A stretch of 64,000 nt of DNA from a virus. The stretch spans positions 1 to 64,000 of IMG/VR virus record IMGVR_UViG_3300023184_002781, one strand, 5' to 3'. Position numbers and translations under genes: made by a program. The notes under the pieces are model-generated. The model saw only the letters and a list, made by a program, of their open reading frames with translations. It had not been told where the DNA came from and ran no database searches. This document shows, one piece after another, positions 3,991 through 51,264 of this stretch (the first letter of the stretch is position 1; every line of letters begins with the position of its first letter).

Positions 3991-4656
3991 TTATACTACT
4001 TCTGGAAACAGGACTTCGCTGACAAAACGTTTCATTTTAGATTCTTCTACACCCATACTAACCATACTGCGTATAACGTGTGGATTCTGCTTTTGATAGT
4101 GACAATAACGATTCTGTGCCATGTGATAATCTGCTGTGTCTTGCTGCGTATTTCCGACGTTTTTTAGATAATAATCCAATGTACGTAGTGCTAATTCACA
4201 TAAATTGTCTAATTCTTCGCCTATTCTTACATTACCTGCGGCAACCATTGCAGGGCTGAATATACTACTTGCCCACTCAGGCAGGTCTCTAGCCTTTTGC
4301 CAATTGTAGTAAAGTAACTCATTGGCAAACCAACGCATCATAGGATGTGTGGGATCACCTCCTGAACTGTAATCACAGAATGCACCTGTGATTTTATTTG
4401 GACCACACACTGCATCAAATCCAAAAATAGGGCTAGGATCGTTAAAACGTGGAAACACCGTACAATGTAAAATGTAGATATTGTGACTTTCTCTATTATC
4501 TACAATTTCTATATGTGCTCTACGATATCGAGGGCTTGACCAAAGTTGATTATGCCACTCGTAATCTAAATTACCTGCTATTGGTTCTCCAGTAGCATTA
4601 AATTTGTCCTCGAACTTTTTAGCTAGTTCTTCAATTTTGTCCCAAACTGCTGTCAT
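3991..4656 (-). CDS. pcyX: Ferredoxin-dependent bilin reductase (PcyX/PcyA-like)
   Basis: RRAHIEIVD, LHCTVFP, PIFGFD, LPEWASSIFSP and QNRYCHYQKQN motifs; adjacent to heme oxygenase. Confidence 0.8.
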   Translation of the reverse strand: MTAVWDKIEELAKKFEDKFNATGEPIAGNLDYEWHNQLWSSPRYRRAHIEIVDNRESHNIYILHCTVFPRFNDPSPIFGFDAVCGPNKITGAFCDYSSGGDPTHPMMRWFANELLYYNWQKARDLPEWASSIFSPAMVAAGNVRIGEELDNLCELALRTLDYYLKNVGNTQQDTADYHMAQNRYCHYQKQNPHVIRSMVSMGVEESKMKRFVSEVLFPEVV

Positions 4657-5176
4657 ATGATTCCATTATTTTAATTGCCCATTCAAAGGCTATGTTGGCT
4701 TCAACGGCCATATCGTCTGACAGCATAGTACGTACAGTTTTAATTAACTCGGCACGATCTTCAAACTCTAAATGTGAGTGTGGTGCTTCCACAATCTTCT
4801 TAATCATTTGGCCACCGTGTAGGTCGCCCATGTGCCAAGTATAAAGGTGTGCCATAATACGAGTAGGATCACCTAATGTTCGTATATAACTAACATACTC
4901 TTTGGTTACTTCTTTATAGGTATTAAAACTACCTACAGGTTTATCCATGGCATCGTAGTCATCCATGATTAATCCTGCTCGTTCAAAGCCTGGTGGAAAT
5001 GCGTCTAACAATCCCGCTGTACGGGCAGCATGTTCTATTTCTTTATACCAAAGTTGTTTTTGATATGTAAAATCTACCCAAACATCAAAAGGCAATGTCT
5101 TTGCAAACACTGCCTTCATGAATAGGGTATCTTCTGCCTGTTGATGTTTATCAGCAGTTAAATCTTTTAAACTCAT
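4631..5176 (-). CDS. hemO: Heme oxygenase
   Basis: LKDLTADKHQQAE proximal His helix; AHLYTWHMGDLHGGQMI distal helix. Confidence 0.88.
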   Translation of the reverse strand: MSLKDLTADKHQQAEDTLFMKAVFAKTLPFDVWVDFTYQKQLWYKEIEHAARTAGLLDAFPPGFERAGLIMDDYDAMDKPVGSFNTYKEVTKEYVSYIRTLGDPTRIMAHLYTWHMGDLHGGQMIKKIVEAPHSHLEFEDRAELIKTVRTMLSDDMAVEANIAFEWAIKIMESYDSSLGQN

Positions 5177-5185
5177 AGTAGTTCC

Positions 5186-5491
5186 TCATTCGGGTTCTAC
5201 TTTAATTATCAAAGGCCAACCATGTGCTCTGGCTAAATTGGTTCCATCGATGGCTTTCTGCTCTGCTACTTCAAAACTATAAGTACCTACTGTAGCACTA
5301 CCTTGAGTATGTATTTGTAATGTTAGTACTAATGCTGTTTTTTGATCATGTCTAAACACAGCTATTAACATTGATATTACAAATTCCATAGGAGTTGAAT
5401 CATCATTACATACAATGACTTTAAACTTACCAGGTTCTTTAATCCTATTAATTGTTCTAGTCTTTTTTTCTACTACAGTATCAGTGGTCAT
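5186..5491 (-). CDS. clpS: ATP-dependent Clp protease adaptor ClpS
   Basis: KVIVCNDDSTPMEFVI, IHTQGSA and EVAEQKA motifs. Confidence 0.93.
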   Translation of the reverse strand: MTTDTVVEKKTRTINRIKEPGKFKVIVCNDDSTPMEFVISMLIAVFRHDQKTALVLTLQIHTQGSATVGTYSFEVAEQKAIDGTNLARAHGWPLIIKVEPE

Positions 5492-5528: not shown

Positions 5529-5963
5529 TTATTCGCCCTTAATTTTAAGGACACGAGGTTTCAACGCATCAGGAACAACACGCTTCAATTCAATTGTAAG
5601 CACACCATTCTTGATAGTTCCATCTCCGACTTCCATATGTTCAGCCAAAGTCCAGCTACGTGTGAAGTCTCGTAGAGCCAGCCCACGATGTAGGAATTCG
5701 GCAGTAACATCGCTGCTCTTATCTCGAACTCCTTTAACGATCAGTTGATTCTGATCAATCTCAACTGTGACTTCATCCTTGGAAAACCCTGTTACAGCAA
5801 TTTCGATCTCATAGGTATCGTCGTTGTGTTTAACAATGTTGTAAGGGGGGTAGTTATCTTTGAGTTGATTTGCATAACGATGTTCAATATCGTTAAACAT
5901 TGTATCAAAACCTAGAAGTGCTCTGTTTAGAGCGTTGGTGTCGAAACGTACTAATTGTGTCAT
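5529..5963 (-). CDS. Small heat shock protein (Hsp20/IbpA-like)
   Basis: YPPYNI, IAVTGF, FLHRGLA and NGVLTIEL alpha-crystallin motifs. Confidence 0.95.
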   Translation of the reverse strand: MTQLVRFDTNALNRALLGFDTMFNDIEHRYANQLKDNYPPYNIVKHNDDTYEIEIAVTGFSKDEVTVEIDQNQLIVKGVRDKSSDVTAEFLHRGLALRDFTRSWTLAEHMEVGDGTIKNGVLTIELKRVVPDALKPRVLKIKGE

Positions 5964-6047
5964 ATTTTTTCTCCTTTAAAAGTAAGATAACACTGGGCAC
6001 TATGCCCTAAAGTGGGACCCTTGATAGGTGTCCCACAATACTATTTA
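5964..6047 (-). promoter_or_regulatory. TAAATA promoter plus three-hairpin ROSE-like 5' UTR of hsp20
   Basis: Hairpins GTGGGAC/GTCCCAC and GGGCATAGTGCCC; TCTTACTT can pair with the AAGGAGA SD; architecture duplicated upstream of dnaK. Confidence 0.65.
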
Positions 6048-7949
6048 TTATACAGTCTCTTTAGCTTCTGTGTCAACTATGCCGTCTTCCGCATCTTTCT
6101 TGGCCTGTTCTTCAGCTTTCTTTGCTGCTTCTTCGGCTTCATGCTTCTTACCAGTGATAGGACCCATAGCTTGATAAAGTTTTGGAATACTATCTTGAAT
6201 GATTTTAGGATCATCGCCTTTGATAGCATCTCTAATTGCTTGAGCTGCATCATCAACATTAGCCTTTTCTTCAGCAGTAACTTGATCTCCATACTTGTCA
6301 ATATCAGCTTGGAATTCATTTAAGGTAGATTCTGCTGAGTTACGTGCTTCAATGAGCTCACGTTGTTTCTTATCCGATTCAGCATTAGCTTCGGCATCTT
6401 GAACCATACGTTCGATTTCTTCTTTGCTAAGTCCGCTGTCGGATTTGATAGTGATCTTATTCTCTTTGCCGGTTCCTTTGTCTATTGCCTTGATATTCAT
6501 AATACCATTAGCATCGATATCTAAAGTAACTTCAATTTGCGGAGTACCTCTACGTGCTGGAGGAATACCTTCTAATTTGAATTCGCCCAATAGCTTATTG
6601 TATTGGACGAATTCTCTCTCGCCTTGGAATACTTTGATATCTACAGCAGGTTGATTGTCATCAGCTGTGCTAAACACTTGGCTATGTTTAGTAGGAATGG
6701 TTGTGTTCTTTTGAATCAACTTGGCCATTACACCGCCTTGGGTTTCAATACCGAGACTTAGTGGAGTAACGTCTAGCAATAGAACGTCAGTGCGTCCTCC
6801 ACCTAGTACATCACCTTGGATAGCAGCACCAGCAGCTACTGCTTCATCTGGATTAACATCCTTGCGTGGTGCCTTGCCGAATAGTTTCTCAACTGTTTCA
6901 ACAACCTTAGGCATACGTGTCATACCACCAACAAGGATAACTTCATCAATGTCTCCAGCAGTAACACCTGCATCTGCCATAGCAGTTTTACAAGGTTCAA
7001 TACTACGTTGGATTAATTCATCAACTAGACTTTCTAACTTAGCACGAGTAAGTTTAACATTTAAATGTTTAGGACCACTTGCATCTGCTGTGATGTAAGG
7101 CAAATTAACATCTGTCTGTGCAGAACTAGACAATTCAATCTTTGCTTTTTCAGCAGCTTCTTTCAAACGCTGGAGTGCTAGCATGTCCTTTTTAAGATCA
7201 ACGCCGTTGTCTTTCTTGAATTCATCAACCAAGAAATCCATAATACGCTGGTCAAAGTCTTCGCCACCTAAGAATGTATCACCATTGGTGCTTAGAACTT
7301 CAATTTGTTTGTCGCCATCAACATTAGCAATTTCAATAATACTTACGTCAAATGTACCACCACCTAGGTCATAGACAGCAATCTTGCGATCACGTTTGTC
7401 TGCCTTATCCATACCATAGGCAAGAGCAGCAGCAGTAGGTTCGTTGATAATACGTAGAACTTCAAGTCCTGCAATCTTACCAGCATCTTTAGTTGCTTGA
7501 CGTTGTTGGTCATTAAAGTAAGCAGGTACAGTAATAACTGCCTGTGTAACTTCGTGTCCAAGATAGTCTTCAGCAGTGAGTTTCATTTTGCGAAGAACCT
7601 CAGCACTGATTTGTGGGGGAGCAAGTTCTTGATCATTTGCACTTACCCAAGCATCGCCATTGCTTGCTTCAATAATTTTGTAGGGCATTAGATCAATGTC
7701 CTTCTGTACAGCCTGTTCTTTAAACTTACGTCCAATTAGACGTTTAGCTGCATAGATTGTGTTCTTTGGATTTGTAACTGCTTGGCGTTTTGCACTAGCA
7801 CCTACAAGAATTTCATCGTTGGCATAGGCAATAATACTAGGAGTAGTCCTTGCACCTTCGCTGTTTTCGATGATTTTTGGAATACCGTTTTCAATAACGG
7901 CTACACATGAATTGGTTGTACCGAGGTCGATACCGATTACTTTACTCAT
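6048..7949 (-). CDS. dnaK: Chaperone DnaK (Hsp70)
   Basis: [19 protein letters not shown] and [11 protein letters not shown] motifs; full length 633 aa. Confidence 0.98.
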
Positions 7950-8032
7950 AATTTCTCCTTTAATTAAGTAAGAGTTTTGTGGGCCCTATGCCCGATAAGA
8001 TATCCAATATAGGTATATCGTGCATTTATTTA
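7950..8032 (-). promoter_or_regulatory. TAAATA promoter plus three-hairpin ROSE-like 5' UTR of dnaK
   Basis: GATAT/ATATC hairpin, GGGCATAGGGCCC and TCTTACTT...AAAGGAGA. Confidence 0.65.
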
Positions 8033-8043
8033 TTATAGATTAA

Positions 8044-8322
8044 TCAAGAATCAATGTCAATATGATCGGCAGCTTTTGCTACATTTTTCATTTTTTCATT
8101 ATAAATGTTACGACTTTGCTCAATATCAAACTCAAAATTTTCTGGGTTATTAACTGCTTTTAGCACAGGATGTATTATCTTATCTGTGATCCTACGACTC
8201 ATATCTTCCATGACTTTTTCTATATCGTCACCTCGGGCAATACGTTGCATAGCACGACCTTTTTCAAACATGCTAACACGAGTTGCCCATGACTCTATAG
8301 ACTCATCCGGATTAATTCTCAT
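8044..8322 (-). CDS. Stand-alone glutamyl-tRNA reductase (HemA) dimerisation-like domain protein
   Basis: EKGRAMQRIARGDDIEKVMEDMSRRITDKIIHP resembles the proteobacterial HemA C-terminus. Confidence 0.6.
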   Translation of the reverse strand: MRINPDESIESWATRVSMFEKGRAMQRIARGDDIEKVMEDMSRRITDKIIHPVLKAVNNPENFEFDIEQSRNIYNEKMKNVAKAADHIDIDS

Positions 8323-9134
8323 TCAATATTAAATTCTAATGTACTACTTATTTTAGGTATAAGAGTAGGTTCCACATCAATACTTAGTAGGTCTTCTACT
8401 ACACGACTGCGATTTTTGATATTGGTTTGTCCGAGAACTACCACTCCGAATAACTCTTTATTTTTTTCTATTAACATAAGCACACATCTTCCGGCCGGAT
8501 TAGTGAATCCAGTTTTACTAATTAAAATATTATCATATACAAATATATCTGGATTTGTATTTCTTAAGTTAATTGTAATAGTTTTTTTACCCTTGGGTAC
8601 TTTTAAAACCATATTACGTTCATTGGCTATTTTACGTATCACTAGATTGTCTTTGATACGATGTAAAAATTCTATGAGTTCTCGAGCAGTACTTTTATTA
8701 CCTTCTTTAAGTCCCGTGCTATCCACAATTGTAGTATTCTCTAATGTAATATCTTTTACATAGTTATTAACATCAAATAAAAATTTATTAAAGCCGCCTG
8801 GATGATGATATGCCAGTGTTTCTGCTGCTCTATTGTCACTGGTGATAATCATGGCTCGCATAAGGTCCATACGTGTCATATATGTTCCCCTTATAACATG
8901 ACCAGCGCTCCGACCATCTATATATATTTTTTCATCAAGATCAACTCCACTATTCAATACAGTTATTGCAGTAAATAATTTTGTAATGCTAGCTATGCTT
9001 CGAATTTCTACATGATTATATCTTACAATATAGTTAGCAGAACTATAATCATACAGAGCATACGATCCGGGCAAGGATGTTGCAGCATGGGCTGATGTTA
9101 TAAACATCAGTAGTATAATAAAAAGTTTTTTCAT
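8319..9134 (-). CDS. Peptidase S11 (D-Ala-D-Ala carboxy/endopeptidase, PBP7-like), secreted
   Basis: Signal peptide; SITK (SxxK), SDN (SxN) and KTG motifs. Confidence 0.9.
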   Translation of the reverse strand: MKKLFIILLMFITSAHAATSLPGSYALYDYSSANYIVRYNHVEIRSIASITKLFTAITVLNSGVDLDEKIYIDGRSAGHVIRGTYMTRMDLMRAMIITSDNRAAETLAYHHPGGFNKFLFDVNNYVKDITLENTTIVDSTGLKEGNKSTARELIEFLHRIKDNLVIRKIANERNMVLKVPKGKKTITINLRNTNPDIFVYDNILISKTGFTNPAGRCVLMLIEKNKELFGVVVLGQTNIKNRSRVVEDLLSIDVEPTLIPKISSTLEFNIE

Positions 9135-9430
9135 GACCACTTCAATATAAACATAGTTAGATCTTTTTCATCTTTAAAATAAAACTTATCTTTCTTTTCA
9201 AACCAACGGACACCTGATTTTCCATATTGCTTAATACACCATTTTAGTGCCTGTTCATTTATATCAGGTGGAGTATCTTCTGCTCTACCAAGTTCGATCC
9301 AAGTGTAGTGCATACCCCAACCACTAGCTTTGCCAGTTTTCATAGGACGTAACTCGTGATCCGAACCTATGTTCAAACCACCAAATACTTGACTACTAAT
9401 ATTAGGGAAACCGGGGATTGTTGTTGCCAT
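9131..9430 (-). CDS. Hypothetical protein, 'FxL(K/R)W' C-terminal family
   Basis: Ends FYFKDEKDLTMFILKWS. Confidence 0.75.
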   Translation of the reverse strand: MATTIPGFPNISSQVFGGLNIGSDHELRPMKTGKASGWGMHYTWIELGRAEDTPPDINEQALKWCIKQYGKSGVRWFEKKDKFYFKDEKDLTMFILKWS

Positions 9431-12973: not shown

Positions 12974-13002
12974 ATTATACACTAAACTGGTAAATTTGTC
13001 AA
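12974..13002 (-). promoter_or_regulatory. Consensus sigma70 promoter
   Basis: TTGACA-17-TATAAT heading the 12967-8044 gene run. Confidence 0.9.
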
Positions 13003-18366: not shown

Positions 18367-18395
18367 ATTATACAGGAAATCTGATATCTTGTCAA
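18367..18395 (-). promoter_or_regulatory. Consensus sigma70 promoter
   Basis: TTGACA-17-TATAAT; the -35 box overlaps the bS21 stop codon. Confidence 0.88.
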
Positions 18396-22700: not shown

Positions 22701-22729
22701 ATTATAGCGACTTTTTACCAGTTTGTCAA
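22701..22729 (-). promoter_or_regulatory. Consensus sigma70 promoter with GGTAAAA spacer motif
   Basis: TTGACA-aactggtaaaaagtcgc-TATAAT. Confidence 0.9.
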
Positions 22730-29247: not shown

Positions 29248-29382
29248 TTAAATGTCCATTTCTTCGTAATCTGCTTTACCTACACCGCATTCTGGGCAGC
29301 AAAAGTTATCGTCCAAATCTTCCCATTTACCTTCAGTTTCTTCATCGTGGATATGACCACATACTACGCAAACGTGTTCCAT
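29248..29382 (-). CDS. Rubredoxin (44 aa)
   Basis: Manual: MEHVCVVCGHIHDEETEGKWEDLDDNFCCPECGVGKADYEEMDI; coupled to rubrerythrin. Confidence 0.92.
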   Translation of the reverse strand: MEHVCVVCGHIHDEETEGKWEDLDDNFCCPECGVGKADYEEMDI

Positions 29383-29831
29383 TATAGTGTCTCCAATACT
29401 TGTTTATATGCTTGAGCATGACGTTGCTCAACTTTTTGTAATGCCGCAAAACGTTTTTCTGCTCGGGCTAATACTGCTATAAATTGTTCAGCATGTTCTT
29501 TGCTTTCTTCAATTTGATGATTGGCTTCACGCATGGCTCGTGAATTACCTTCATATTCAGCAGCACGTTTGAATTCTGGATACATGGTAGTAAATTCATA
29601 TGTTTCACCTTCAATAGCTTTTTCCAAACATTCTTTAGTTGATGGTTTGCCAATTAGCAATTCCAAATGTCCCCAAGCATGTAGTAGTTCTTGATCTGCG
29701 GTGTGTTCAAAATGTTTTGCAACATCTTCGTAACCTTCTTCGCGAGCAATTTTTGCAAAGTATCTATATTTGACATGTGCCTGGCTTTCTCCTGCCAATG
29801 CACTTTCTAAGTTTTTAATGGTAAGTGACAT
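29382..29831 (-). CDS. Rubrerythrin (ferritin-like di-iron domain)
   Basis: AGESQA...Y, ELLHA, GETYE...MY and ESKEHA motifs. Confidence 0.93.
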   Translation of the reverse strand: MSLTIKNLESALAGESQAHVKYRYFAKIAREEGYEDVAKHFEHTADQELLHAWGHLELLIGKPSTKECLEKAIEGETYEFTTMYPEFKRAAEYEGNSRAMREANHQIEESKEHAEQFIAVLARAEKRFAALQKVEQRHAQAYKQVLETL

Positions 29832-29884
29832 CTTTTCTCCTTGTGTGTGATTGTCTTACAATGTTAATTGTACATTTATTTACT

Positions 29885-29930
29885 ATAGTAATCAACTATA
29901 AAATGGTATTTTTCAATTGTAATTTCCTAT
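29885..29930. promoter_or_regulatory. OxyR/LysR-like operator
   Basis: ATAG-N7-CTAT (29885-29899) and ATTG-N7-CTAT (29916-29930). Confidence 0.5.
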
Positions 29931-29943
29931 TACTATTATAGGT

Positions 29944-29969
29944 AAAAGAAACCCGCCGAAGCGGGTTCT
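29944..29969 (-). terminator. tmRNA terminator
   Basis: AGAACCCGC-TTCG-GCGGGTTTCTTTT. Confidence 0.85.
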
Positions 29970-30217
29970 GTTATTTTCTGTTACGAGGTATAACTACCCT
30001 AGGCGGCGTTTAGGCGGCCAAGGCGAACTGTGAGTCGTTTGCATTTACTTTTTTTGCTTGATTTACGGTCATCGCCTACCGTGCTGTCCACTTCAATACT
30101 CCTGACCCAATCGATCCTGTGTCATCCCCACCTAAATATACTTTATACACTTAGGTGGAGATGCCGGGCACTGCCCCCGGGTCTTGGCTCCATTTTTATC
30201 CGCTTCATACAGCAATA
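29970..30217 (-). ncRNA. ssrA: Circularly permuted two-piece tmRNA, tag ANDSQFALAA
   Basis: Acceptor piece first (T-arm CCGGG-GGCAGTG-CCCGG, CATCTCC-ACC ending 30154), hairpin spacer, then GGGGATG at 30129 (G3:U70); tag at 30042-30010; TAAATA at 30223-30228. Outer ends approximate. Confidence 0.92.
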
Positions 30218-30225
30218 ACTCTTAT

Positions 30226-30372
30226 TTAATCAGCTCGTGTATAATTCAATACCATACCTTGGCCATATTGGGCTTCAGCAATCATTTTAGCCTGCCAATC
30301 ATTATCAGCATTGACAATGACATTAGCAGTTTGATAAGGATTCAAACGAATCCAAACATTGTAACGATACAT
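30226..30372 (-). CDS. Small early protein (48 aa)
   Basis: Manual: MYRYNVWIRLNPYQTANVIVNADNDWQAKMIAEAQYGQGMVLNYTRAD; AGGAG SD; own sigma70 promoter. Confidence 0.8.
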   Translation of the reverse strand: MYRYNVWIRLNPYQTANVIVNADNDWQAKMIAEAQYGQGMVLNYTRAD

Positions 30373-30401
30373 AGCAGACTCCTGTGTGTTGTTAAGTATT
30401 A

Positions 30402-30430
30402 ATTATAGCAAGGTTTTACCTATTTGTCAA
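30402..30430 (-). promoter_or_regulatory. Consensus sigma70 promoter with GGTAAAA spacer motif
   Basis: TTGACA-aataggtaaaaccttgc-TATAAT. Confidence 0.9.
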
Positions 30431-34410: not shown

Positions 34411-34550
34411 TTCCATGTCCTTATCGCGATCCAATGTTGGATGCGTTGTATATGCCATGCCATCCATCCGGGCACACGGCATATTTTTTTACCACTTGGT
34501 GTGTATAATGTATTATCACTACTAACACCCATTAATCCTATTGTTATCAT
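34407..34550 (-). CDS. Small Trp-rich protein (47 aa) between nrdA and nrdB
   Basis: Manual: MITIGLMGVSSDNTLYTPSGKKICRVPGWMAWHIQRIQHWIAIRTWK; ATGA overlaps at both ends. Confidence 0.7.
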   Translation of the reverse strand: MITIGLMGVSSDNTLYTPSGKKICRVPGWMAWHIQRIQHWIAIRTWK

Positions 34551-36871
34551 AATTTGCATGCCTCGCAGTCTTCGTCGTCGCTATATATAGTAACAGGTTC
34601 TAATGCTACTAATCTATCACTTTGTGTCATTAATATATTTTTACTACCTACTTTGTCTATCAGGCTATAATACATAGTCTTTAAACCCCACTTGTAGGCT
34701 AACATTAAGTTCTTAGCAATTAATGTTCCTGGTACTTTACCATCTTTAAAATGTCTCGGACTATAGAATGTATTAGTACTTAGACTTTGGTCAATATATG
34801 CTGCTAGGACCGCTGATGTTTTTAAATAATCAACACAATCAGCCTGTTCCCACATCAATTGATAACGGTTCTTCAAGCGACGATATTCCGGAACAACTTG
34901 TGTAAATGATCCGGCCTTGCTTTCTTTAACGCTGATCAGTTCCATAGGCATTTCAATACCGTTAGTAGAGTTTAAAACAACACTACTTGATTCAACAGGA
35001 GCAACTGCCATAAGTGTAGCATTACGTATCCCATACTTCTTCATACGCTCACGTAATGGTTCCCAATCCATGCTAGGTGTAAAGTCTGTGAGTTCATTAA
35101 CACCTGCTGCTCTGCGTTCCCAAGGAAATACTCCCCGGCCGTAGTAAGTATGTTCGCTACGCAGACATGGGCCACGCTCTTGGGCCAGTTCCACACTTGC
35201 TTCGGTTAGGTAGTATGCCTGATGTTCCATCCAACGTTTGACTTCTGCTAGTGCATCTGGTTCGCCGTATTTAAAACTCTTACGTGCATGCCAGTAGGCT
35301 AAGTTTGTAATGCCAACACCTAGTGGTTCAAAATCATCATTGGCTAGTTTGCTCTGTATGCTTAGGAAGTCTTGATATTGTAACAAGTTACTTAGACTGC
35401 GAACCAATATTCTGCAAGCCTTACGCATTTCTTGTGGATTACGGAATGCACCCCAATTTATGGACCCAAGAGTACAAAGAGCAATGCGTCCCTCTGGATC
35501 TTCAATTCTTTGGAAAGGCTTCGTGGGTAAAAGTATTTCTTGGCATAGATTTGATTGGTATATTGGGTCAAGCTGTGTATCAAACGGGCCCTGGTTGATA
35601 ACGTTGTCAATGTTGACAAGGTAGATGCGCCCAGTATCAGTACGTTCCTTAAGGATACCATTTTTGAAGATTTCATCAGCCGATACGCTCTTCTTTTTAA
35701 TTGTCGGATGCTTTTCATAATTTAGGTATAGTTTTTCAAATTCTTCGCTGTTGCGATAGTAAGCTTCGTATAAGTCAGGTACGTCATGTGGATCAAACAA
35801 TGTCATCATTTGTCCATTCTTATAACGATTCCAAAACATTTTATTAATCACTACACTGTAATCCATTTGACGCACACGAGTTTCTTCAGTACCTTGATTA
35901 TTTTTAAGAACAATAAGGTCTTCAAACTGATAATGCCAAACGGGGAATGTTACTGTACAACTTGCATTACGGATGCCACCTTGACTACAACTACGTAGAT
36001 CAGCAAACCATTTTTTCAAGAAAGGTATCATACCTGTATGTTTGATTTCACCGTTACGTATAGGAGCACCGAGTGGGCGGATACGTCCAATCTCTAATCC
36101 TATGCCAGCACGTTTGCTAGCATACTTGGCCATCATTTCACCAGAAGCGAAGATGCTGTCCAAAGTATCATCGCTACTGATAAGGACACAGCTACTAAAC
36201 TGCTTAGTAGTAGTACCGAGACCAGCAAGCACAGGTGTAGCCAACGTAAAATGGCCTGCGCTAGCACATTCGTAATATTCTTTGACATACTTTAATCTTG
36301 CCTCCTTAGATTCATTATGGAATGCTGTTGCCGCAGCAATAGCATAACGTACCTGAGGAGTCTCGAATATCTGTCCAGTGGCACGATTCTGTACTAGATA
36401 TTTTTCACATAACTGTGCTATGGCAGCATAGGTATAAGTTTCATCTTTGTCATGGTCGATGAATAATTCAATGATATTCCATTCCTCTTCCGAATACCAT
36501 TTAAGTAATTCCGGTGTGTACATTCCGGCATCGATATTCTTTTTTACAATATCGTATAGGCGGGAAGGTTTATAATCTCCATATACCTCTTTACGTAGCA
36601 TACTGACCTTTTGGCGTCCCGCTACTAGTTGATAATTTACATTGTTAATTTCTGGATTTTCAGTTTCGTCTATAAGATCAACCATTGCCTTAAGCAATAG
36701 TTCATCTATTGTTTCTGTAGTCATTCCATCATGTAGTTCAATTTGCGCTTTGATTTCGATCATACTAGGACTAACCCCGTCTATACCCTTACAAGAGTAT
36801 GCTACTTGTCGTTGTATTTTTTCAATATCAATGGGGACGCGATTCCCATTACGCTTTACTACTGTAATCAT
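34547..36871 (-). CDS. nrdA: Ribonucleotide reductase class Ia alpha subunit
   Basis: ATP cone, FSSC, SNLCQE, KTMYY and C-terminal CEAC. Confidence 0.97.
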   Translation of the reverse strand: MITVVKRNGNRVPIDIEKIQRQVAYSCKGIDGVSPSMIEIKAQIELHDGMTTETIDELLLKAMVDLIDETENPEINNVNYQLVAGRQKVSMLRKEVYGDYKPSRLYDIVKKNIDAGMYTPELLKWYSEEEWNIIELFIDHDKDETYTYAAIAQLCEKYLVQNRATGQIFETPQVRYAIAAATAFHNESKEARLKYVKEYYECASAGHFTLATPVLAGLGTTTKQFSSCVLISSDDTLDSIFASGEMMAKYASKRAGIGLEIGRIRPLGAPIRNGEIKHTGMIPFLKKWFADLRSCSQGGIRNASCTVTFPVWHYQFEDLIVLKNNQGTEETRVRQMDYSVVINKMFWNRYKNGQMMTLFDPHDVPDLYEAYYRNSEEFEKLYLNYEKHPTIKKKSVSADEIFKNGILKERTDTGRIYLVNIDNVINQGPFDTQLDPIYQSNLCQEILLPTKPFQRIEDPEGRIALCTLGSINWGAFRNPQEMRKACRILVRSLSNLLQYQDFLSIQSKLANDDFEPLGVGITNLAYWHARKSFKYGEPDALAEVKRWMEHQAYYLTEASVELAQERGPCLRSEHTYYGRGVFPWERRAAGVNELTDFTPSMDWEPLRERMKKYGIRNATLMAVAPVESSSVVLNSTNGIEMPMELISVKESKAGSFTQVVPEYRRLKNRYQLMWEQADCVDYLKTSAVLAAYIDQSLSTNTFYSPRHFKDGKVPGTLIAKNLMLAYKWGLKTMYYSLIDKVGSKNILMTQSDRLVALEPVTIYSDDEDCEACKL

Positions 36872-47853: not shown

Positions 47854-50800
47854 TTATCTACGCACGAAATGATAGTCGCCGTCGGGACCGTTGTTGCTAA
47901 AAAGTCCTAAACAGTCATAGCCTATTGAATCCATATAAGCAATCACAGTATCTTTTAACGGAGCACCTTTGTTATATTCTACTATTTGTAATTCTAATAT
48001 AATATGTTTGGCAGTTTTAATAGTTTCTTGAGCACCTTTAAGCACATCCAATTCAGCACCCTGTACATCCATTTTAATTAAATCAGGTGGAGGAAATCTT
48101 TTTAAACTAGCAACTGCATCGAGCGTAATAGTCCTAAGTTTTCTTACATATCTATCACTATACAATGTTGCGGCGGCTGGTTGAATATCGGGATTTTCTC
48201 TGTAATAGCTGTTGCCGCCCGGTGCTTCGTTATTTTGATAAAAATCTACTTCTTTACCACTTTCACTACTTAATACACCTATGTGATATTTTATGCCAGT
48301 TTCTTGATATAAGAATTCATGTACATCAGCAGCTTCAAATGCTATAACTTCTGCACCAGGCCAAATAGTTCTAACCCTGTCAGTCCAATGCAATACACAT
48401 GCTCCAACATCATATATAACTTTTGGATTCTCACCTTGCTCTTTTAACTTGTTTAAGTAGTCAATATGTGCTGGGGGGAACGGATAAGGATCTCGCAACT
48501 CTCTTAAAAATTGTTTAATATCAACTACTGTAGAATGTGTTTCAATCATAGGCAAACTAGTATCTACATTAAATGTAAAACTGCCCGTATGTCTGCATAA
48601 GATACCAGAATCCGCCCAAATAGTAAATCCTTTTTCTCTAGCTTTTCTACAAAAATCAACATCTTCAGATACCGTACCTTCCATAGATATGGCGCTGTAA
48701 TATTTAAATTGCGGATATCCTATAGTTCTAAATACTTCAGCTTTAACTAATGCACATCCGAACCCGCAGCCTGCAACTTCTACAAGCGGTCTGTTTTTTA
48801 ATTTTCCATAGGGCATATTAGTAACACCCCCTGTAGGAGTGTGTTCATATATTTCTAAAATATGTTGTCCCGGCTTACGCTGTATATATAATCCGGATAC
48901 CACAGGTTTATCATGTGCTAATAATCTTGCTAATGTATCCGGTGGAAAAGAAATATCACTATCAACTGAGAACAAATAATCAAAACCGTTAATTGTCCAA
49001 TCTGCAATTAGATTGCGAATTTGATCTATATTGTATCCATAAAAATATTGAAACACAGTTTCATATCCATCTGGAATTATTAGATCGTAGATACTTTTAA
49101 AAGTATCAGGCTCAATGTTCTTAGCTGTGGGAATTGCTATAAGTATCTTCTTTTTAGGTTGAATCATGTTATTAACTATCTCGTTTGCGTTTTTAGTTTG
49201 TTCTTGCGAATTAACTTTGTAATCGTTTAATGGGCTTGCATCATTGTAATTATATACTATGTCTTGAAGGCATTTTATTTTGTTAGGATCTGCTTTTTCT
49301 ATTAATGCATAGAATACACTTCCATCGCCACCTGCTTTATACCAGTTACCATTTTTATCCTTAAATGAACTATCATCAATATTATTCAATAATGATTTTT
49401 TGAATGTTCTTAAATGTGTGTAGGGCAATATCCAATTAAAATGATAATTTCTATAAGATCTATTTTGTTTTACTTCTTCTGGATATGGTTGGCTTATTAA
49501 TGGTATATTATCAACCATGCTCCAGCAACTACCATAGGTGAATTCAGTACCATCTTCATATATTGAATTATAATATGCTAGTACTGTATTGTCATTAATT
49601 AAACTATCATCACCATCTAATAACATAACAATAGCATCATCACTGATCATTGATCTAATGTTTTGTATTTGATTCCTAACTGCGCCTAAATTCTCACTAT
49701 TTGCAATAACTGAAAACTTATTTCTAATATCTACTGGTAATTCTCTTAATGTATCTAATATTACATCTATAGTATTATCAGTACTTGCATCGTCGATTAA
49801 AATATGTTGATAGTTATCATAGTCCTGTGACGCTACACTGACTATACAACGAGCAATATATTCGGCACAGTTGTAAAACGGGCTAACAATTACAATCTTT
49901 TTTTCGTTGCCTAGTTTATAATTTTCTAGTTCGATAGTATTGTTAAATCTACGATTCCATATTTTATGTACTCGTTGATTAATTTTTGATACTTGACGAT
50001 AACTATCTCTGGATATATATTTGCCCAAACGATGTGCTATGTGTTGTTTCCACTGTAGGGCAACACTATCCCATCCTGCTATATCTTTAACTATATTACA
50101 ATAGTATTGTTTTTGTTGATGAAGATATCTATTGTGATATGCTTTTATAGTCATTTCTACAAATTTATTAACTTGTTCGGGACTATTAATATCGGGAAAC
50201 AATCCGTTAGGCTCAACTGCATAATCAATATGATAGCAAGCACCTTCTAATGCAATTTCTTCTAATGCTCCAAATCTACAAGTAAGTATGGGAGTATTGT
50301 ATAGCAAACTTTCTAAAGATGATATACCAAATGTTTCAGGAAATGCTGCTGGGTATATCATAAAACTTGCCAATGTAAGTATATCAGCAATTTCTTTTTG
50401 TGAAATAACTCCGGTATATTCAATGCCAAGTTCTAAATTGCGTGGATCAGCTGCCATTCGCCGCCAATCTTTTTCTTGTTGATCAGGTTCGGAACTTTCG
50501 CTAAATCTATAATAGCCGCCGATAACTTTTAATCTAGCACTGGGTATCATAGCCTTTACCTTAGGCCATATATGATTCACTAATGGAATCATACCCTTGG
50601 TCACACTAGCATTATATACAAATAAGTTATGATCCTTAGCTTTGATATCAACTTCTTTTTTATAATTTCTAGCACCATTACGTGTGATAAACATCTTACG
50701 TTTTAGTACTTCAAAATTGCGTCTGCGTCCGTGATTACAATTTGCAACATAGGTTAAGTGAAAGTCACTGAGTGTGAATATATCAGTTATACGATCAGCA

Positions 50801-51225
50801 ACCGTAAGTTCCTCAATGATGTTATCACCTAGACAAAATGTATCATGCATCCATAATATACGCATCTTAGCTTTAGATAATATTCTATCATACAAATTCA
50901 TGCTATAGAATGGATTTGCTCTATTATCTCCAAGTTTATGATAATCGTTTGGATCAGTAAATGGAATTACAGTTCTTGAACTTACAACTATATCAAATAC
51001 ATGATCATTGGCTAATTCAATTAATGGTTTATATTCAACCCCATCATAGTTCCCGGGTTTTGCATGATCTATACCGCAATTATTAAATACGGTAACATTA
51101 AATCCTATTTGAGCTAATTCACGTGCCATTAGTGTGACAGCACTTTCACTACCGCCTAATCCTTGATTATCTATAGTAGTACCATCGTAGGGTATACCAA
51201 TTATATCTATAATAGCAATTTTCAT
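47854..51225 (-). CDS. Multidomain GT4 + GT2 + GT2-like + FkbM methyltransferase
   Basis: ETFGISSLE; IDDAS/LDGDD; VDSD...SEDVDFC; YDVGA/KMDVQGAE. Confidence 0.88.
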   Translation of the reverse strand: MKIAIIDIIGIPYDGTTIDNQGLGGSESAVTLMARELAQIGFNVTVFNNCGIDHAKPGNYDGVEYKPLIELANDHVFDIVVSSRTVIPFTDPNDYHKLGDNRANPFYSMNLYDRILSKAKMRILWMHDTFCLGDNIIEELTVADRITDIFTLSDFHLTYVANCNHGRRRNFEVLKRKMFITRNGARNYKKEVDIKAKDHNLFVYNASVTKGMIPLVNHIWPKVKAMIPSARLKVIGGYYRFSESSEPDQQEKDWRRMAADPRNLELGIEYTGVISQKEIADILTLASFMIYPAAFPETFGISSLESLLYNTPILTCRFGALEEIALEGACYHIDYAVEPNGLFPDINSPEQVNKFVEMTIKAYHNRYLHQQKQYYCNIVKDIAGWDSVALQWKQHIAHRLGKYISRDSYRQVSKINQRVHKIWNRRFNNTIELENYKLGNEKKIVIVSPFYNCAEYIARCIVSVASQDYDNYQHILIDDASTDNTIDVILDTLRELPVDIRNKFSVIANSENLGAVRNQIQNIRSMISDDAIVMLLDGDDSLINDNTVLAYYNSIYEDGTEFTYGSCWSMVDNIPLISQPYPEEVKQNRSYRNYHFNWILPYTHLRTFKKSLLNNIDDSSFKDKNGNWYKAGGDGSVFYALIEKADPNKIKCLQDIVYNYNDASPLNDYKVNSQEQTKNANEIVNNMIQPKKKILIAIPTAKNIEPDTFKSIYDLIIPDGYETVFQYFYGYNIDQIRNLIADWTINGFDYLFSVDSDISFPPDTLARLLAHDKPVVSGLYIQRKPGQHILEIYEHTPTGGVTNMPYGKLKNRPLVEVAGCGFGCALVKAEVFRTIGYPQFKYYSAISMEGTVSEDVDFCRKAREKGFTIWADSGILCRHTGSFTFNVDTSLPMIETHSTVVDIKQFLRELRDPYPFPPAHIDYLNKLKEQGENPKVIYDVGACVLHWTDRVRTIWPGAEVIAFEAADVHEFLYQETGIKYHIGVLSSESGKEVDFYQNNEAPGGNSYYRENPDIQPAAATLYSDRYVRKLRTITLDAVASLKRFPPPDLIKMDVQGAELDVLKGAQETIKTAKHIILELQIVEYNKGAPLKDTVIAYMDSIGYDCLGLFSNNGPDGDYHFVRR

Positions 51226-51236
51226 ATATGCTATTA

Positions 51237-51264
51237 ATTATACTATCTCCGATTAGAATGTCAA
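51237..51264 (-). promoter_or_regulatory. Sigma70 promoter
   Basis: TTGACA-16-TATAAT. Confidence 0.8.

Follow-up and report, generated by a model that had tools for sequence, protein, structure and literature searches.

The window analysed here comprises the first 64 kb (64,000 nucleotides) of a 96-kb IMG/VR virus record, which is rated 28% complete and is therefore a fragment of a jumbo phage. On its minus strand it carries the chaperone genes hsp20 (5529..5963; 144 aa; Pfam HSP20, PF00011, E 1.6e-15) and dnaK (6048..7949; 633 aa; Pfam HSP70, PF00012, E 1.8e-256), with genes for ClpS, heme oxygenase and an S11 peptidase nearby. Auxiliary genes are many in the window (4631-5491, 8044-9140, 29382-29831, 34547-36871 and 47854-51225) and encode heme oxygenase, ClpS, a small ORF with a match to the GlutR dimerisation domain, an S11 D-Ala-D-Ala carboxypeptidase, rubrerythrin, a class I ribonucleotide reductase and a 1123-aa protein in which two glycosyltransferases are joined to an FkbM methyltransferase. 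ARAGORN, run on the whole window, detected zero tRNA and zero tmRNA genes.

Both chaperone genes lie behind promoters that match the consensus at 12 of 12 positions. The hsp20 promoter (6047..6076, minus strand) is located within the 3' end of dnaK and consists of TTGACA at 6076-6071, an 18-nt spacer and TATAAT at 6052-6047, while the dnaK promoter (8032..8060, minus strand) consists of TTGACA at 8060-8055, a 17-nt spacer and TATAAT at 8037-8032. Judged from these positions, transcription would start at about 6041 for hsp20 and about 8025 for dnaK. The window has seven perfect TTGACA-N16-18-TATAAT promoters where 0.11 would be expected, each of them on the coding strand (minus; 6047-6076, 8032-8060, 12974-13002, 18367-18395, 22701-22729, 30402-30430 and 51237-51264), and five of the seven are followed by (A/T)AATA. 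The phage thus seems to rely on consensus sigma-70-type promoters. A first-pass annotation of this DNA had assigned late promoters to both genes and treated TAAATA as a box in its own right, and neither assignment survives: the T4 late box, TATAAATA, is depleted in the window (5 against 13.4 expected), the leaders lack the T4-type late pattern of an upstream TATAAATA box enriched before late genes, and TAAATA is the tail of TATAAT-AAATA, that is, of the -10 hexamer and the transcript start. What both leaders do carry is AATAAATA, overlapping the perfect TTGACA-N17/18-TATAAT promoter. The remaining five perfect promoters served as an internal control; their leaders are short and without structure, so that, among the seven, only the two chaperone genes have a long, structured leader. 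Downstream of one perfect promoter, positions 29832-30401 form a stretch of 570 nt without an ORF of at least 70 aa.

hsp20 and dnaK each have a leader of 76-78 nt on the minus strand, with three hairpins, H1, H2 and H3. Aligned with each other, the two upstream regions have a mean column identity of 78% and an identical element order, namely TATAATAAATA, H1, H2, UCUUACUU, a loop of 3-5 nt, AAGGAGA and AUG; every element that the first-pass annotation had listed for its pair of same-order leaders is indeed present. Predicted folds make H1, whose first base lies 4-7 nt from the inferred 5' end, a very stable hairpin. Its outer stems differ between the genes (GUGGGAC/GUCCCAC in hsp20, GAUAU/AUAUC in dnaK), and the bulged A and CC...GG apex are found in both. 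H2 is GGGCAUAGNGCCC in either leader, i.e. GGGCAUAG(U/G)GCCC. In H3, also common to both, UCUUACUU would pair, around a bulged A, with the ribosome-binding site (SD) AAGGAGA. The pattern TCTTACTT-N(2-8)-AAGGAGA has two occurrences in the window (0.00 expected), and the whole 96-kb record contains no others.

In the hsp20 leader (minus strand), H1 spans 6012..6036 and reads GUGGGAC-A-CC / UAUCAA / GG-GUCCCAC, with the bulged A at 6029, as placed by MFE folds and by alignment to the covariance model R1 described below. H2 follows at 5995..6007 (GGGC-AUAGU-GCCC), and H3, at 5970..5987, is composed of the anti-SD UCUU-A-CUU (5987-5980, bulged A 5983), the loop UUA and the SD AAGGAGA (5976-5970). 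GGAG occupies 5974-5971 and the start codon 5963-5961; in addition, GUGUUAU (5993-5987) can lengthen the H3 helix onto AUAUGAC, AUG included. In the dnaK leader (minus strand), H1 spans 7999..8019 (GAUAU-A-CC / UAUAUU / GG-AUAUC, bulged A 8014), H2 spans 7981..7993 (GGGC-AUAGG-GCCC), and H3, at 7954..7973, is composed of the anti-SD UCUU-A-CUU (7973-7966, bulged A 7969), the loop AAUUA and the SD AAGGAGA (7960-7954), with GGAG at 7958-7955 and the start codon at 7949-7947. A kissing contact of the H1 loop (CUAU) with that of H2 (AUAG) fits the window and was rejected, as it fails in relatives with loops such as CCUAAUGG or CCAUAGGG.

Searching IMG/VR for exact copies of H2 together with the anti-SD gave 46 loci, every one of which adjoins a dnaK or hsp20 start on its upstream side. 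Retrieval by protein similarity yielded 32 hsp20 loci and the best 80 of 188 dnaK loci, on contigs of up to 524 kb. At the dnaK loci found by protein similarity alone and having enough upstream sequence, the leader was present in 79 of 79 cases (73 with the strict pattern and 6 as close variants), which shows that it is not a search artefact; its presence on dnaK, described as unusual in the earlier reading, is both real and general in this phage group. A total of 165 distinct leaders was collected, located before dnaK, before hsp20 and, in a few phages, before groES followed by groEL. The leader before groES is of a two-hairpin form in the regions L015:1674-3694 (minus strand) and L130:3357-3715; the groES genes were identified as Cpn10 (E 6.5e-33 at L015 and 2.1e-33 at L130), and at L015 a groEL gene (Cpn60, E 3.7e-76) comes after groES. 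The leader is thereby a mark common to a set of three chaperones.

The covariance model R1 was built from 24 related phage leaders with matching geometry, the window being left out. It scores the window leaders at 65.1 and 56.1 bits (E 2e-12 and 2e-10), the next-best match in the window reaches 10.6 bits, and in the 96-kb record the two leaders are the only matches. Across 587 kb, from the window and 99 related loci (100 sources), each of the 155 matches at E<=0.01 directly precedes dnaK, hsp20 or groES. A search of 185,579 prokaryote species for the exact H2 plus anti-SD pattern returned four matches, none with an SD or a heat-shock context; an origin of the leader in a host was rejected on this basis, as that exact-pattern search gave no cellular counterpart of the three-hairpin A form.

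A MAFFT alignment of 82 leaders (A2) was structurally inconsistent and was replaced by a geometry-matched seed (A3) and a model-based realignment (A4). Standard pairs account for 97.4% of cells in A4, compared with 80.2% in shuffles and 51-59% with slid partners, and the observed covariation score was reached by 0 of 500 shuffles. Compensatory changes were found in 121 distinct relatives at eight of the nine H1 pairs, and at all four H2 pairs (GGAC/GUCC, GAGC/GCUC, AGGC/GCCU and GGGU/ACCC in relatives); H1 and H2 are therefore real RNA helices. H3 is paired in 98.8% of cells and shows zero covariation because the SD and anti-SD are invariant, its sole variation being U.G to C-G at one pair in 5 of 121 sequences. 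The comparison of homologues that the first-pass annotation had called for thus bears out covarying helices for H1 and H2, and for H3 it returns conservation without covariation; the pairing of H3 is a prediction from that conservation and from energy models. RNAalifold independently recovers H1 and H3. The base pair before the bulge is U.G in H1 of 65 and in H3 of 116 of the 121 distinct leaders, and the structure is that of the sense-strand RNA, since pairs of this kind, frequent as they are, would be C-A mismatches on the other strand. H2 is optional, being missing from about half of the related leaders (the two-hairpin form); where present, its AUAG loop is nearly invariant and its stem covaries. 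At the level of sequence, comparison with over a hundred related phages makes a conserved structured leader well established.

ROSE elements are textbook bacterial RNA thermometers. Members of the ROSE-like class are found in 5' UTRs of heat-shock genes, in the classical case of a small one (PMC11182007, PMC3669281), and the leaders described here lie directly upstream of hsp20 and dnaK. They contain three hairpins, with H1 and H2 supported by covariation and H3 by conservation and RNAalifold. The ROSE anti-SD motif U(U/C)GCU with its bulged G is absent from the window, where both genes have UUACU with a bulged A. In relatives the motif does occur, as UUGCU or UCGCU: among 73 dnaK loci of the protein-similarity set, the bulge is G at 51 and A at 22. 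The SD helix is imperfect in the ROSE manner, and to the U.G counts given above is added C-G beyond the bulge in 121 of 121 distinct leaders, both window copies being included in these figures. A crystal structure of the ROSE-like oppF stem has the U.G wobble 5' of the bulge and C-G 3' of it, with the bulged G flipped out of the stem (PMC11342760), so that an A at this place would be structurally plausible.

None of the Rfam ROSE models detects either leader in the window, and ROSE_3 (RF02523) has no match at E<=10 in the window or in the whole record; the cmsearch check suggested in the first-pass annotation was therefore negative for these leaders. The proposal behind it, a G-to-A variant of ROSE, is nevertheless supported through relatives. 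More distant relatives, of the G type, carry at the place of the window's UUACU the sequence CUUGCUU, which contains the ROSE core UUGCU with its bulged G. They match ROSE_3 at 24.8-38.6 bits with both hairpins aligned (best E 2e-4), below the Rfam gathering cut-off of 43 bits, and hairpin I of the ROSE_3 consensus (GAU-G-CC...GGGUC) is the same module as the phage H1. The scan with these ROSE_3 matches also gave one weak ROSE_2 match (22.4 bits). A-type relatives, two-hairpin ones included, have no Rfam ROSE match at E<=10. Since G-type relatives match ROSE_3 and A-type ones do not, the window leaders are a derived branch of the short ROSE-like family, in which both bulged G residues have become A and one hairpin has been inserted. 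The leaders are not of the FourU type, in which four consecutive U pair with the SD: the anti-SD is UCUUACUU, and the Rfam scans returned no FourU match. Matches to Rfam freshwater-2 (RF02980) at window 5961-6009 and at L036:4758-4807 were rejected, with 22-26 bits against a cut-off of 49.9; they cover just H2 and the AAGGAGAAAA SD context, twelve other related loci gave no match at E<=1, and the two probably reflect chance or a style of SD common to lake phages.

We favour, with moderate confidence, a model in which a promoter and a three-hairpin leader act together and H3 is opened by temperature in a ROSE-like manner. Each gene would be transcribed from its consensus sigma-70-type promoter into an mRNA with a 5' UTR of 76-78 nt, in which H1 is a stable 5' hairpin that probably aids folding and shields the 5' end and H2 is a short GC clamp. 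H3 would consist of UCUU[A]CUU paired with AAGGAGA in seven pairs, with the U.G wobble, bulged A and C-G as its core, and would mask the SD in vivo. Being marginally stable, it would limit 30S binding in the cold and open on warming, like ROSE-like RNA thermometers. As the promoters look constitutive, the leader would then couple phage chaperone synthesis to temperature, for DnaK and Hsp20 here and for GroES-GroEL in relatives, and would do so without the host heat-shock sigma factor.

Energy calculations agree with this model in part. ViennaRNA assigns to the isolated H3 of hsp20 and dnaK free energies of -4.8 and -5.5 kcal/mol at 10 °C and of -0.9 and -2.3 kcal/mol at 37 °C, and removal of the bulged A adds about 4 kcal/mol of stability. 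For hsp20 the predicted exposure of the SD climbs only gradually, being 0.22 at 4 °C and 0.37 at 42 °C; for dnaK it does not rise below 50 °C. When 30 nt of coding sequence are added to the dnaK leader, the prediction places the anti-SD opposite UGAGUAA, at the start codon, and no longer opposite the SD; within 7947-7975, the dnaK anti-SD UUACUUA is complementary to UGAGUAA (start codon and codons 2-3). Across 75 dnaK leaders this start-region complementarity amounts to -7.26 kcal/mol against -6.50 in synonymously recoded controls, with a median rank of 0.40, and being no stronger than in these controls the pairing is not a selected feature. Ensemble predictions of this kind offer weak support at best, so that temperature sensing is something we infer, by homology with the Pseudomonas ibpA leaders, and the leader as a thermometer is plausible on that footing.

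The bulges add a pattern that this model does not call for. At the H3 bulge, A occurs in 92, G in 73 and C or U in none of the 165 distinct leaders. The bulge survey covered loci L087-L166 and the window in alignment A4, where the H1 and H3 bulges agree in 116 of 120 distinct leaders (AA 71, GG 45, AG 4, GA 0); two of the four AG cases (L104, L117 hsp20) score low and look misaligned, and when read directly have G as the H1 bulge. At 49 of 54 loci there is full agreement between a phage's dnaK leader and its hsp20 leader. Mapped on the DnaK tree, each site requires at least 4-5 changes to explain the A state, and the AU test rejects a single A clade (p 0.009), so the switch occurred more than once, although recombination of leaders between phages could inflate or mimic such repeated switching. 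AT mutational pressure was rejected as the source of the G-to-A change, A-type loci being slightly richer in GC (0.407 against 0.388). Independent A/G contrasts number two on well-supported branches and 3-4 overall; a sign test on so few is underpowered, and the bulges may have co-evolved. A plain melting model needs neither an H2 loop so nearly invariant nor four bulges that are A or G in concert, and the concert of the bulges would allow for one partner shared by all or for a set-point tuned jointly. It is conceivable, at long odds, that one partner reads all four bulges, which would make the leaders a chaperone-regulon operator beside or instead of a thermometer, or that each lineage tunes its temperature set-point as a block.

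Stated as a rival in full, the leaders would be a translational operator read by a trans-acting partner, an RNA-binding protein or small RNA of phage or host, with melting secondary or absent. The target would be the module "U.G wobble, bulged purine, C-G" that is repeated in H1 and H3, and maybe the H2 loop. The agreement of bulges within and between leaders, their restriction to purines, the polyphyly of the A state with GC content as no explanation, and a loop kept nearly constant on a covarying stem all fit such a partner. Weighing against it are the small number of A/G contrasts together with the effect that recombination could have, the loss of H2 in about half of the leaders, and the ability of bacterial ROSE elements to function in vitro without accessory factors (PMC3669281); moreover, the partner is hypothetical and has no candidate. 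We consider this operator rather unlikely as an account of the leaders.

Also unlikely, in our estimate, is that the hairpins stabilise or process the mRNA and that H3 acts as a constant, mild attenuator with no temperature response. A very stable H1 so close to the inferred 5' end, the stabilising role proposed for hairpin I of Pseudomonas ibpA (PMC3669281) and the small change of predicted SD exposure with temperature are what such a function would lead one to expect, but it leaves unaccounted for the strict conservation of anti-SD, bulge and wobble in 121 distinct sequences, the restriction to chaperone genes and the homology to validated thermometers. Inverted repeats just downstream of heat-shock gene promoters might also suggest that a heat-shock repressor binds the DNA there, as HrcA does at CIRCE or HspR at HAIR, but this is very improbable, given that H1 conserves its pairing and not its stem sequence, that frequent G.U pairs allow the structure on one strand only, that the conserved parts include the SD and its complement, and that a search of the window for CIRCE (TTAGCACTC-N9-GAGTGCTAA), tolerating up to 3 mismatches, gave 0 matches.

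Returning to the ROSE-like thermometer, its main interest lies in where it would operate. ROSE has been described for bacterial small heat-shock genes and recently for ABC-transporter genes (PMC11342760), and the phage RNA thermometers cited in the literature searched number three, none of them ROSE-like (PMC11182007). If the leaders do sense temperature, a large group of lake jumbo phages would run its own post-transcriptional heat-shock regulon of DnaK, Hsp20 and GroES-GroEL, using constitutive-looking promoters and independent of host sigma-32. The natural swap of the "highly conserved" bulged G for A, in both hairpins and on both genes, offers a ready test of the role of that nucleotide, and with the A variant an entire branch of the family escapes the current Rfam ROSE models. 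Full-text searches on ROSE-like elements in connection with phage, dnaK or hsp20 turned up no account of such leaders.

Among known systems, Bradyrhizobium ROSE1, whose Rfam family we take to be RF00435, and the E. coli ibpA leader, reportedly found by Waldminghaus et al. in 2009 to have three hairpins (cited via PMC11182007), resemble the window leaders in having 2-4 hairpins with the SD in the 3' one alone and a bulged nucleotide as the key destabiliser. They differ in that the anti-SD core of the window has a bulged A and that those elements are known from bacterial small heat-shock genes only; barring the weak ROSE_2 match, neither sequence comparison nor the Rfam scans revealed similarity of the phage leaders to Bradyrhizobium/E. 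coli-type ROSE. The phage RNA thermometers listed in a 2024 paper, namely lambda cIII, SPbeta blyA (fourU) and a Caudoviricetes sigma-70 gene (fourU), which are the only ones given there (PMC11182007), share with the present leaders a temperature-related control of translation by phage mRNA structure, whereas none of them is ROSE-like or located on a chaperone gene. The oppF stem of Providencia stuartii has the same SD-helix geometry of U.G wobble, flipped-out bulged purine and C-G, and deletion of its bulge lowers heat induction (PMC11342760); it differs in belonging to an ABC-transporter gene of a bacterium, in its bulged G and in its other surrounding hairpins.

The two-hairpin ROSE_3 element of Pseudomonas ibpA (PMC3669281) resembles the window leaders in its 5' hairpin ("stem, U, bulged purine, CC ... 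GGG, stem"), in the SD-masking hairpin that follows, where a U.G wobble, a bulged purine and a C-G pair recur, and in its place upstream of a small heat-shock gene, within the 5' UTR. Its hairpin II melts between 25 and 42 °C while hairpin I remains folded (Krajewski et al. 2013, PMC3669281), and deletion of the bulged G, or of the bulged A35, locks the switch or abolishes regulation (PMC3669281). In comparison with this element, the window leaders have both bulged G residues as A (UUACU instead of UUGCU) and an additional hairpin, H2, between the 5' and SD-masking hairpins; they are found in a phage, behind sigma-70-type and not sigma-32 promoters, and the phage leader is present additionally on dnaK and, in relatives, on groES.
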